DNA of 64,000 nt from Bdellovibrionales bacterium (GCA_965200875.1 OZ241456.1:96001-160000); one strand, 5' to 3'. Positions 13,154 to 15,570 are shown, numbered from the stretch's first letter. The notes: generated by a model from the sequence alone, not told the origin. Translations and numbers: made by a program.

Positions 13154-14062
13154 ATGAAGTTGTTTTTTGCTTTGCTTTCAGTTTTAATTTTTGTCCAAAA
13201 ATCTTATGCCAATCCTGTTTCTGGTTTAGCCATGCCGGCTATTGATAAAAGCAAAGAAGCAGAACAAGAAAAAACTGCTAAGGGCTTGATAATTGCTTTT
13301 AAGGTGTGGCCTTTGAGTGAGATAGATAAAAGTGCACTTTTAAAGAAAACAAAAGCTCTGGGACTTGAAGAAAAAATTTCTTATTCCCGATTTAAGACTT
13401 ATATATTTGAGTGGGAGGGGTGGCGTGAAAAAAGCCAAGCCGAAAGGGCCTGCGAAAGTTTTTTAAATTTTCCGGGGCTGGATTACTGTGAACCAAATAT
13501 TTTACAAAAGCCTCAAATGGGTAAAATACGAAGACGAAATGATCAAAAAGCCCATAGACAAACACTTAAAAGAAGAGCTGAAATAAATGAAAAAGAACTT
13601 GGAACCAAGAAAGAAGAACCTAAGTCAGATATAAAGCTTAATCCTCAGGAGACCTTTTCAGATACAGAATCGGGAGATGTTCGCACCTGTAAAATCATTT
13701 CCTCTGAATTAAAATTGCAGGGAGGTGAATTATCAGATTATTGGGCGCAGGAGATGATCGGATCTGATTTAATGAGAGAGGAACTTAAACTTCATCCCCC
13801 TGTTAAAAAACACCTTGTGGGAGTGTTTGATACCGCTCACCATTCCAGCCGGCATGATCTAGCCAGTAAACATATCATTTCAGGTGAGGGAAAACAAGCG
13901 GTCCTGCCACCCATAGGTAACAGCATCACCAACTTTGATGTAACTCTCGGAGGGTATAGCTTAGGGCATAGTGAATATTTGTTAAAAACCTCTGAAAACA
14001 GATGTAAACACCTAAAGTCCAAAAAACCGGCAAGCCCACCAAGCCAGAGAGCCGTAAGATGA
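13154..14062 (+). CDS. secreted protein: prodomain-like region + N-terminal portion of an S8 (subtilisin) peptidase
   Basis: Signal peptide (MKLFF...SYA); prodomain-like segment ending CEPN; 'YWAQEMIG', then VGVFDT (candidate catalytic Asp226) and RHD (candidate His234). Confidence 0.7.
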   Translation: MKLFFALLSVLIFVQKSYANPVSGLAMPAIDKSKEAEQEKTAKGLIIAFKVWPLSEIDKSALLKKTKALGLEEKISYSRFKTYIFEWEGWREKSQAERACESFLNFPGLDYCEPNILQKPQMGKIRRRNDQKAHRQTLKRRAEINEKELGTKKEEPKSDIKLNPQETFSDTESGDVRTCKIISSELKLQGGELSDYWAQEMIGSDLMREELKLHPPVKKHLVGVFDTAHHSSRHDLASKHIISGEGKQAVLPPIGNSITNFDVTLGGYSLGHSEYLLKTSENRCKHLKSKKPASPPSQRAVR

Positions 14063-15570
14063 TTAAAGCTTTAAAGTTAAATTTACGATTTTTATTAATA
14101 ATGTTATTTATGGTAACAAGCACTTTTCCAGAAGTGGCTGAATCAGGATTTGTTAAAAAGCGGGTCCAAAAAAAAGTCAGGCCAAGGCCCGATAAATGGC
14201 GAGGTCCCCCTTCTCCTCCCATAAAAACCCCTTCTAAATCACCTATAGTGGCTGACTCAAATCCTTATAGACAATGCCGAGCCACTGTCATGCCCTCCTT
14301 TATCAACCGTTCTATGTCATCGACTGAGACTACCTATCGCTCTCTAAAAGCACTTTCCCCTCCTTCCATTGTAGTTAATTCAGCAGGGAACGCTTATCCA
14401 AAGCCTGTCTCAAAAGTTAATGCAAAAATGAGTAAGGAGTTTAATGCTATTTTAGTAGGTTCTATGTCCCCAGAAGGAATAAAAAGCAAGTTTTCCCAGG
14501 AAGGGGAGGCTGTTACAATTATGGCCCCTTCTGATCACTATCTCACTTCAGCTACCAGCACAGGTCATTATCGAAAATATGGTGGTACAAGTGGAGCAAC
14601 ACCTTTGGTCACAGGAAGCCTAGCTGGTTTTGAGTGGATAGCAGGCTATCACCCCACAGCAGAGGAGGCTAAAATTTTATTAGCTAAAACAGCTATTCCC
14701 ACACCTTATTCCTCAGACAAACCTCAAAAAAATGGGGCAGGCATGGTCAATGCCTATAAATTGGCTATGGTGGGGAAACAATTAAAAAAAACTTGTGGAA
14801 AAAATATATCCTGCTTTAAAGACCAAATAAGAAAAAACGATATTTACCAATTTCCAGAAGACAAAGCAGTGAGTGAAGCTTTAGACAAAGCTTTTCCTTA
14901 TTGCTCTTCCACTTGCACAGCAGAAGACTTAAAAACTCCGCCTTCCTGTGCTAAAAAAGCTAAAGCCTTTAAGAATTTCAGAAAACAAGCTTTTTTAAAC
15001 CCTCAGAATAAAAACCTTTGGAAAAAGATAGCCTGTGTTTATGCTCAAGGGGGTTTCGAAAAAAACAAAACTTTTGCATTGAATATCTATAACTCTATTT
15101 CCGGGAAACCACCACAAACTATTGATCCCCCTCCCCCTATCGGTGGTCACTCTTGTAAGAAAGATTCAGACTGTGTTTTAGCACCCAGTTGTAACATGGG
15201 GATTCAGAAGATTAAAAAGGATGGATCTAGCTCTGATATTCAAAACCCACTACTTACCCTGAATCGCGATTATCAGGAAACACATTATCTCGCTTGTGTA
15301 GAGCACAACGGGAAAATTCCCCTTTGCAATGGTAAATGTCGATGTGATTCCCAGGAAAAAGTATCACCTTCTTCTGCCGAAGCTGGACATATTGCCACTG
15401 CGTCTTGTGTGGATTCCAAGTGTATTATAACGAAAGATTATATTCCTTCTCCACCCCTTTCTTCTCCTCCAAATCCCGGTGGTGGTGAAGTCCCTCCTCC
15501 AGAAAGTGGTGGAAGTGGTGGTGAGACCCCCTCCGGTGGTAGTAGTGGAAACTCTGGTGCTGTTAAATAG
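14059..15570 (+). CDS. secreted S8 (subtilisin) peptidase C-terminal portion with Cys-rich domain and Pro/Gly/Ser tail
   Basis: Signal-peptide-like N-terminus; INRSMS, VNSAGN (oxyanion Asn111), SKFSQ, GGTSGATP (catalytic Ser178), GAGMVNA; ATGA overlap with upstream ORF. Confidence 0.85.
   Translation: MIKALKLNLRFLLIMLFMVTSTFPEVAESGFVKKRVQKKVRPRPDKWRGPPSPPIKTPSKSPIVADSNPYRQCRATVMPSFINRSMSSTETTYRSLKALSPPSIVVNSAGNAYPKPVSKVNAKMSKEFNAILVGSMSPEGIKSKFSQEGEAVTIMAPSDHYLTSATSTGHYRKYGGTSGATPLVTGSLAGFEWIAGYHPTAEEAKILLAKTAIPTPYSSDKPQKNGAGMVNAYKLAMVGKQLKKTCGKNISCFKDQIRKNDIYQFPEDKAVSEALDKAFPYCSSTCTAEDLKTPPSCAKKAKAFKNFRKQAFLNPQNKNLWKKIACVYAQGGFEKNKTFALNIYNSISGKPPQTIDPPPPIGGHSCKKDSDCVLAPSCNMGIQKIKKDGSSSDIQNPLLTLNRDYQETHYLACVEHNGKIPLCNGKCRCDSQEKVSPSSAEAGHIATASCVDSKCIITKDYIPSPPLSSPPNPGGGEVPPPESGGSGGETPSGGSSGNSGAVK

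Follow-up and report, generated by a model that had tools for sequence, protein, structure and literature searches.

A subtilisin-family protease divided between two adjacent genes at a break conserved across three genera of Bdellovibrionales

The window, a 64,000-nucleotide stretch of DNA (GCA_965200875.1 OZ241456.1:96001-160000), comes from the 1.87-Mb, 37% GC genome of an uncultured Bdellovibrio-like bacterium. Two of its genes, ORF1 and ORF2, carry between them the parts of a subtilisin-family (S8) protease (Table 1). The four nucleotides that they share as stop and start suggest translational coupling of the two, and a scan for promoters and terminators at the locus gave signals at or below chance. 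The pair sits between what we take to be a Lon protease gene and a convergent NADH dehydrogenase operon, in a region (4748-26811) of presumed housekeeping genes (GrpE, a DnaJ-like protein, Lon, NADH dehydrogenase subunits and Mfd). Among the neighbours of related split loci we found no conserved partner; the sole neighbour in common is one gene, shared by 3 genomes, which is presumably an apolipoprotein N-acyltransferase. Contigs 85-99% identical to the window were present in two sponge metagenome runs, and a scan of JGI metagenomes yielded no relative among 97 pattern matches.

Table 1. Features of the ORF1/ORF2 locus, in window coordinates.
Feature	Position	Strand	Basis
ORF1 (302 aa): signal peptide, prodomain, linker, N-terminal S8 part (~subtilisin residues 1-117)	13154-14062	+	
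ORF1 predicted Sec signal peptide, aa 1-19, ending S-Y-A	13154-13210	+	sequence, inferred
Prodomain, aa ~42-121, beta-alpha-beta-beta-alpha-beta (fused-homologue model)	13277-13516	+	model and weak ESM Atlas leads
Asp226, equivalent of subtilisin D32	13829-13831	+	profile alignment, conservation
His234, equivalent of subtilisin H64; helix start in homologue model	13853-13855	+	
Cys284, first of the cysteine pair flanking the break	14003-14005	+	
ORF1 tail, 18 aa, ending R-A-V-R; resembles the ORF2 C-terminal signature	14006-14059	+	
ATGA stop/start overlap	14059-14062	+	
ORF2 (503 aa): signal peptide, Lys/Pro-rich linker, C-terminal S8 part (~subtilisin 118-275), Cys-rich extension, Pro/Gly/Ser tail	14059-15570	+	
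ORF2 predicted Sec signal peptide, aa 1-29; basic start, hydrophobic window 2.62, ending A-E-S	14059-14145	+	inferred
Cys73, second of the pair; candidate interchain disulfide partner of Cys284	14275-14277	+	
Asn111, oxyanion-hole residue (subtilisin N155)	14389-14391	+	
Ser178, nucleophile (subtilisin S221)	14590-14592	+	
Cys-rich family-specific C-terminal extension, ORF2 aa 246-455	14794-15423	+	

The initial annotation of this DNA had read the catalytic residues as divided between the genes, with Asp226 (in VGVFDT) and His234 (RHD) in ORF1 and Asn111 (SAGN) and Ser178 (GTSGATP) in ORF2, and all four lie where it placed them. It had held the Asp and His tentatively, citing their short spacing and the motif HD; conservation, together with profile alignment to D32 and H64, settles that assignment. 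ORF2 matched Pfam PF00082 at residues 97-216 (E 2.4e-9; 37.4 bits against a curated cut-off of 21.8). ORF1 alone had no match in Pfam S8, NCBIfam or the PDB; its residues 170-302 led to Subtilase clusters in the ESM Atlas (best 0.94; PF00082 in 26 of 30 matches), and it aligned to the N-terminal half of each of 10 longer proteins, the Pfam S8 domain being present in eight. Across the aligned rows, D226 was kept in 95 of 99, H234 in 96 of 99, N111 in 101 of 106 and S178 in 103 of 106. The spacing between Asp and His had its mode at 6 residues (48 rows) and Gly followed the His in 18 rows; the short spacing is a family trait.

A catalytic-domain-weighted profile of 31 sequences gave a local alignment to residues 27-269 of subtilisin NAT (E 3e-16), which placed the family Asp, His, Asn and Ser on D32, H64, N155 and S221 of solved subtilisins. 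This was the only profile to reach the Asp, those built from full-length members having failed to do so. In the family profile 26 residues between D32 and H64 are deleted, which could mean a change to the active site. HHalign comparison with ten canonical S8 proteins from related genomes was concordant from the His onward (probability 99.4). Jointly, ORF1 and ORF2 present the Asp-His-Ser order and the oxyanion Asn of S8 peptidases, and ORF1 aligns to the prodomain region of P0004, a fused homologue, an N-terminal prodomain being common, if not universal, among S8 proteins. The triad lies in two open reading frames instead of one. This departure from one-gene architecture is a variant feature and no ground for exclusion from the S8 sequence family, of which the pair is a member by fold and triad.

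The chain modelled with AlphaFold2 was P0004, from 118 sequences, with a mean pLDDT of 84. In this model the Asp follows a strand, the His begins a helix and the Ser begins the central helix. Residues 57-484 superpose on residues 5-398 of pro-Tk-subtilisin (PDB 2e1p), prodomain included (Z 26.8, rmsd 3.1, 332 aligned), and the best Foldseek match was pro-subtilisin E. The model thus has the subtilisin fold, and P0004 is predicted to be a complete pro-subtilisin. The position of the break corresponds to a lower-confidence loop that runs from the helix ending at Cys283 to the helix with Cys310, near subtilisin residues 117-119.

Searching for conserved split and fused homologues returned both. 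An identical break point occurs at 17 loci in 14 Bdellovibrionales genomes belonging to three genera, and the two genes are adjacent at all 17. One of these loci is a second copy in the window genome itself (L001; 76% / 64% identity), split at the same point and with the same ATGA overlap. The surface loop that contains the break is variable and has a conserved cysteine on either side; the remaining fetched loci were either fragments or loci whose loop stays in one frame. The family was present in 27 of 109 genomes of the bacterial family (E 1e-15 or better). We classified 155 proteins, the best 150 representatives at 50% identity plus earlier matches, into those with both halves (103), the C-half only (41), the N-half only (5) and neither (6). 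Among the C-half-only proteins, 23 were picked by eye as ORF2-type (a Met start, resuming at the cysteine motif), and 22 of these had a hydrophobic window of at least 2.0, a count that the manner of picking makes partly circular; the others begin inside the domain and were excluded as probable fragments. Eight of 12 ORF1 homologues of near length, seen whole or as loci, stop soon after the cysteine. The split spans about 23 protein clusters at 50% identity.

The Asp, His and Cys of ORF1 and the Cys, Asn and Ser of ORF2 were kept in all 14 pairs compared, a set formed without L052, L084 and L085. Purifying selection acts on both halves, with dN/dS of 0.07-0.33 over the prodomain, both catalytic halves and the extension. 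When the window was compared with three relatives, dN/dS was 0.12-0.29 for the prodomain and the two catalytic halves and, where computable, 0.07-0.25 for the extension; the ORF2 signal and linker were under weaker constraint (0.72 and 0.67 in the comparison with the paralogue). Trees of the two halves were congruent (Mantel 0.70, 0 of 5000 permutations), as adjacent genes are expected to be whether or not their products bind, and we do not count this towards binding.

Signal peptides were judged from hydrophobicity and charge. The new signal-like N-terminus that had been claimed for ORF2 recurs in 15 of the 16 split loci measured, where the start of ORF2 has a Met, carries net positive charge and reaches 2.1-3.4 in a Kyte-Doolittle window of 11 residues; at the exception, L084, the Met lies one frame off, at a run of A. 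No loop of a fused protein exceeded a hydrophobic window of 1.63 (0 of 27), and 120 of 2381 background segments reached at least 2.0. Within the subgroup of the window, the hydrophobic segment ends in a small-x-small pattern resembling a signal-peptidase site. In another subgroup (L035, L037, L038, L039 and others) it resembles an uncleaved anchor, beginning 67 residues into ORF2 at L038 and L039, so secretion of both chains may not occur at every locus.

The history of the break was examined in a tree of the C-half core with 65 rows: 32 split proteins, 19 fused proteins with the second cysteine, and 14 sampled from 70 fused proteins without it. All 32 split proteins and 18 of the 19 fused proteins with the cysteine formed one clade (100/96, with bootstrap values not fully settled). 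Split and fused forms were interleaved within it, requiring 10 changes, at least 8 of them forced by well-supported branches, although such counts give no direction; a FastTree of 121 rows agreed. A clade of split forms only was rejected (AU p 5e-32). The sister group of the window's own clade is the fused pair P0003/P0004. Fused proteins with the second cysteine had exactly two cysteines in the loop region in 11 of 11 printed sequences, compared with two or more in 2 of 52 outgroup sequences, which puts the origin of the cysteine pair and that of the split in one and the same clade. Since fused relatives are interspersed among the split forms, the split is stable yet not obligatory, and dispensable. 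In two fused proteins, L048 and P0033, the loop retains what resembles a relic of a signal peptide, and re-fusion is probable in their lineage at least. We prefer a reading of one fission followed by repeated re-fusion, the alternative being repeated fission at one hot spot.

The two chains also share a C-terminal feature. ORF2 of the window ends in S-G-A-V-K, and a terminal G/S-x-V/I/Q-R/K/Q was present in 15 of 21 split ORF2 representatives, 6 of 12 fused proteins with the second cysteine and 0 of 67 outgroup proteins. The tail of ORF1 often matches that of the ORF2 beside it (0 of 20000 permutations over 16 loci; 4 of 20000 once three close copies are removed, the kin not being independent), and about seven loci have no such match. 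The signature may be a sorting or processing tag needed by both chains, or a trace of an origin by duplication. A general secretion tag in the window genome was rejected, since 4 of the 274 signal-bearing ORFs have the signature and three of those four are the genes described here.

Building on the gene anatomy, the residue equivalences, the conserved break and the selection on both halves, we propose that the two genes are halves of one S8 protease. Each chain is likely exported on its own, and the pair is predicted to form an active enzyme once both are outside the cytoplasm; we consider this reading probable. Both chains would be made in step from one transcript, the overlapping stop and start giving matched amounts, exported by Sec, and then assembled in the periplasm or outside the cell into a normal subtilisin fold. 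ORF1 would contribute the prodomain and, with the first strand, the His helix and the next strand and helix, the Asp and His; ORF2 would give the oxyanion Asn, the Ser nucleophile, the remainder of the fold and the Cys-rich extension. A disulfide between Cys284 and Cys73 would replace the missing peptide link and lock the chains together, and the prodomain, as elsewhere among subtilases, would chaperone and inhibit the enzyme until its removal. The two-component protease of the initial annotation is borne out in that the triad is divided between two genes, and its assembly into an active enzyme is a prediction of this mechanism. The purpose then suggested, self-protection or an AND gate, is so far unsupported: the prodomain is ordinary, the genes are adjacent with overlapping start and stop, and close relatives are single chains.

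Several other explanations would account for parts of these observations. One gene might have been split by an error of assembly or sequencing, or be a recent pseudogene, and homopolymer frameshifts are indeed common in these assemblies. Contigs over 14000-14300 gave no row with an indel, and the pieces listed end at 14021 and 14037 or start at 14059, none bridging the junction with 31 letters on both sides. Yet the same-genome paralogue has the identical break, which is also found in single-chromosome and fragmented assemblies of other species, and between the halves lie some 70 extra codons that supply a new Met and a hydrophobic segment. By contrast, the third S8 gene of the genome (G000:C1:1161634-1163339), otherwise canonical, has a plain one-base frameshift just past the HGT motif, with no gap and no new signal. 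A simple frameshift had been disfavoured from the start; because the break is conserved across loci, frameshift and misassembly are excluded, and we give an error or recent pseudogene next to no credence. A single chain might instead be restored by programmed frameshifting, stop readthrough or trans-splicing by a split intein, as the -4 overlap in the window and five other loci and the cysteines flanking the break could suggest. Naturally split inteins provide a precedent for two gene products that complement each other, though here intein domains and splicing motifs are absent and the halves would stay two chains. Recoding predicts a constant frame and overlapping open frames, but all three frame relations occur, gaps between the genes range from -32 to +173 nt, the open frame of ORF2 begins past the ORF1 stop in 6 of 16 loci, and readthrough would put a signal sequence within the domain. 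Against an intein, the flanks of the break (18 aa and about 44 aa) are low-complexity and unconserved, no halves of a HINT domain lie there and no intein family matched in Pfam (E up to 1), and in fused forms the same cysteines bracket loops of 8-30 residues. We judge a restored single chain very improbable. It is also possible that the halves make no protease and have separate non-catalytic roles; ORF1, which bears the prodomain, might for example be an inhibitor or decoy, and ORF2 a binding protein. Some ORF1-type proteins do carry a large, unrelated C-terminal region past the cysteine (L037, L085 and P0008, with a Thr/Gly-rich spacer and a domain), but the four catalytic residues and both loop cysteines persist in every pair compared, the genes stay adjacent at every split locus, and neither half is a domain, because the break runs through the central fold. 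Such roles are unlikely in our estimation.

The closest competitor shares the mechanism of separate export and reassembly and differs from it in purpose only: the halves assemble, but the split is a tolerated accident without regulatory role. On this account one fission, for example by tandem duplication and complementary deletions, took place in an insertion-tolerant loop, was inherited, and was repeatedly re-fused. The loop between the cysteines does vary in length among the clade's fused proteins, from 8 to 98 residues, fused forms are nested among split ones, the relics in L048 and P0033 are what re-fusion would leave, and ORF1 tails resemble the ORF2 tail of their own locus. Weighing the other way, the split has persisted over three genera and some 23 protein clusters, the ORF1 tail is identical in the window and its paralogue although synonymous sites differ (pS 0.41), and the ORF2 N-termini are of differing kinds, cleavable-looking or anchor-like. 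We regard a tolerated accident as a serious contender, short of an even chance. A more specific form of reassembly, in which exported split subtilases have one half tethered to the membrane in some species, carry matching C-terminal tags and form an active site only on assembly, is possible but doubtful. If true, it would make a two-key protease whose halves could be switched separately and mixed between paralogues; homopolymer tracts lie in ORF1 of several loci.

Compared with the S8 subtilisins NAT, E and BPN' and with pro-Tk-subtilisin (2e1p), the pair has the same prodomain and fold, the Asp-His-Asn-Ser order and motifs, and a signal peptide. It differs from them in having the triad spread over two genes, 26 residues of the Asp-His loop deleted and, in the window copy, HD instead of HG, and in carrying a Cys-rich C-terminal extension and a second signal peptide. 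Nearer relatives are the single-chain members of the Bdellovibrionales S8 subfamily (P0003-P0007 and P0009-P0012; 103 of the 155 classified proteins), which share the motifs SDYWAQE, VFD, H, PSFIN and GTSGA and the extension, but are one chain, with no stop or hydrophobic segment in the loop. Outgroup single-chain members have neither the cysteine pair nor the C-terminal signature, and often terminate in HEAT repeats.

Two reports describe SpyCEP (ScpC) of Streptococcus pyogenes as a two-chain mature S8 enzyme with triad residues on both chains, Asp on one and His and Ser on the other, arising by autoprocessing of one exported precursor from one gene (PMC7113628, PMC9082167); in the first, separately made fragments reconstitute active enzyme (PMC7113628). 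By analogy, the split pair may work like SpyCEP, with Asp and His on ORF1 and Ser on ORF2, but it is not of SpyCEP type: it comprises two genes with two export signals and separate starts, its two chains do not come from autoprocessing of one precursor, and its break lies past the His helix, dividing Asp and His from Asn and Ser. A report on Bdellovibrio bacteriovorus gives 15 subtilisins and a suggested role in predation (PMC2605481). Exact-word matching in open-access full text turned up no description of a two-gene subtilase.

Few proteases are as well studied or as widely used as the subtilases, whose triad normally lies in one gene, and the pair is a natural, conserved two-gene version. 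A split point near subtilisin 117-119 that evolution has tolerated over three genera would be useful in designing subtilisins that are split or whose activity is conditional. A question of folding arises too, in which a prodomain on one chain would chaperone a catalytic domain completed by another. With split and fused sisters in one clade, the family offers a natural series in which to follow how the gene for an exported enzyme is split and re-fused.

Other irregularities were seen at these loci. A second kind of split has the prodomain as a separate gene, followed directly by a gene for the catalytic domain, each with its own signal peptide (L040 1145-3802 and L053 1616-3127 in genome G003; L087 648-2694 in G120), and L040 holds several prodomain-only genes. 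At L067, near-identical and partly truncated members of the family lie in tandem and bear HEAT-like tails. Further breaks occur at split loci, L052 being decayed and L084 and L044 having homopolymer frameshifts. In eight gene copies from four genomes (L043, L045, two in L046, L047, the second copy of L044, L084 and L086), a poly-A frameshift lies just before the strand of the catalytic Asp, and these are either a slippage switch or long-read error. The paralogue's ORF1 (L001 4780-5110; G000:C1 ~806890) has no ATG in frame; at its start, upstream Mets are separated from the signal-like region by a long poly-C tract, which reflects either phase variation or homopolymer error. The divergent neighbour of the paralogue (L001 2722-4291, minus strand) encodes a secreted-looking protein with an HExxH motif, itself in two ORFs.
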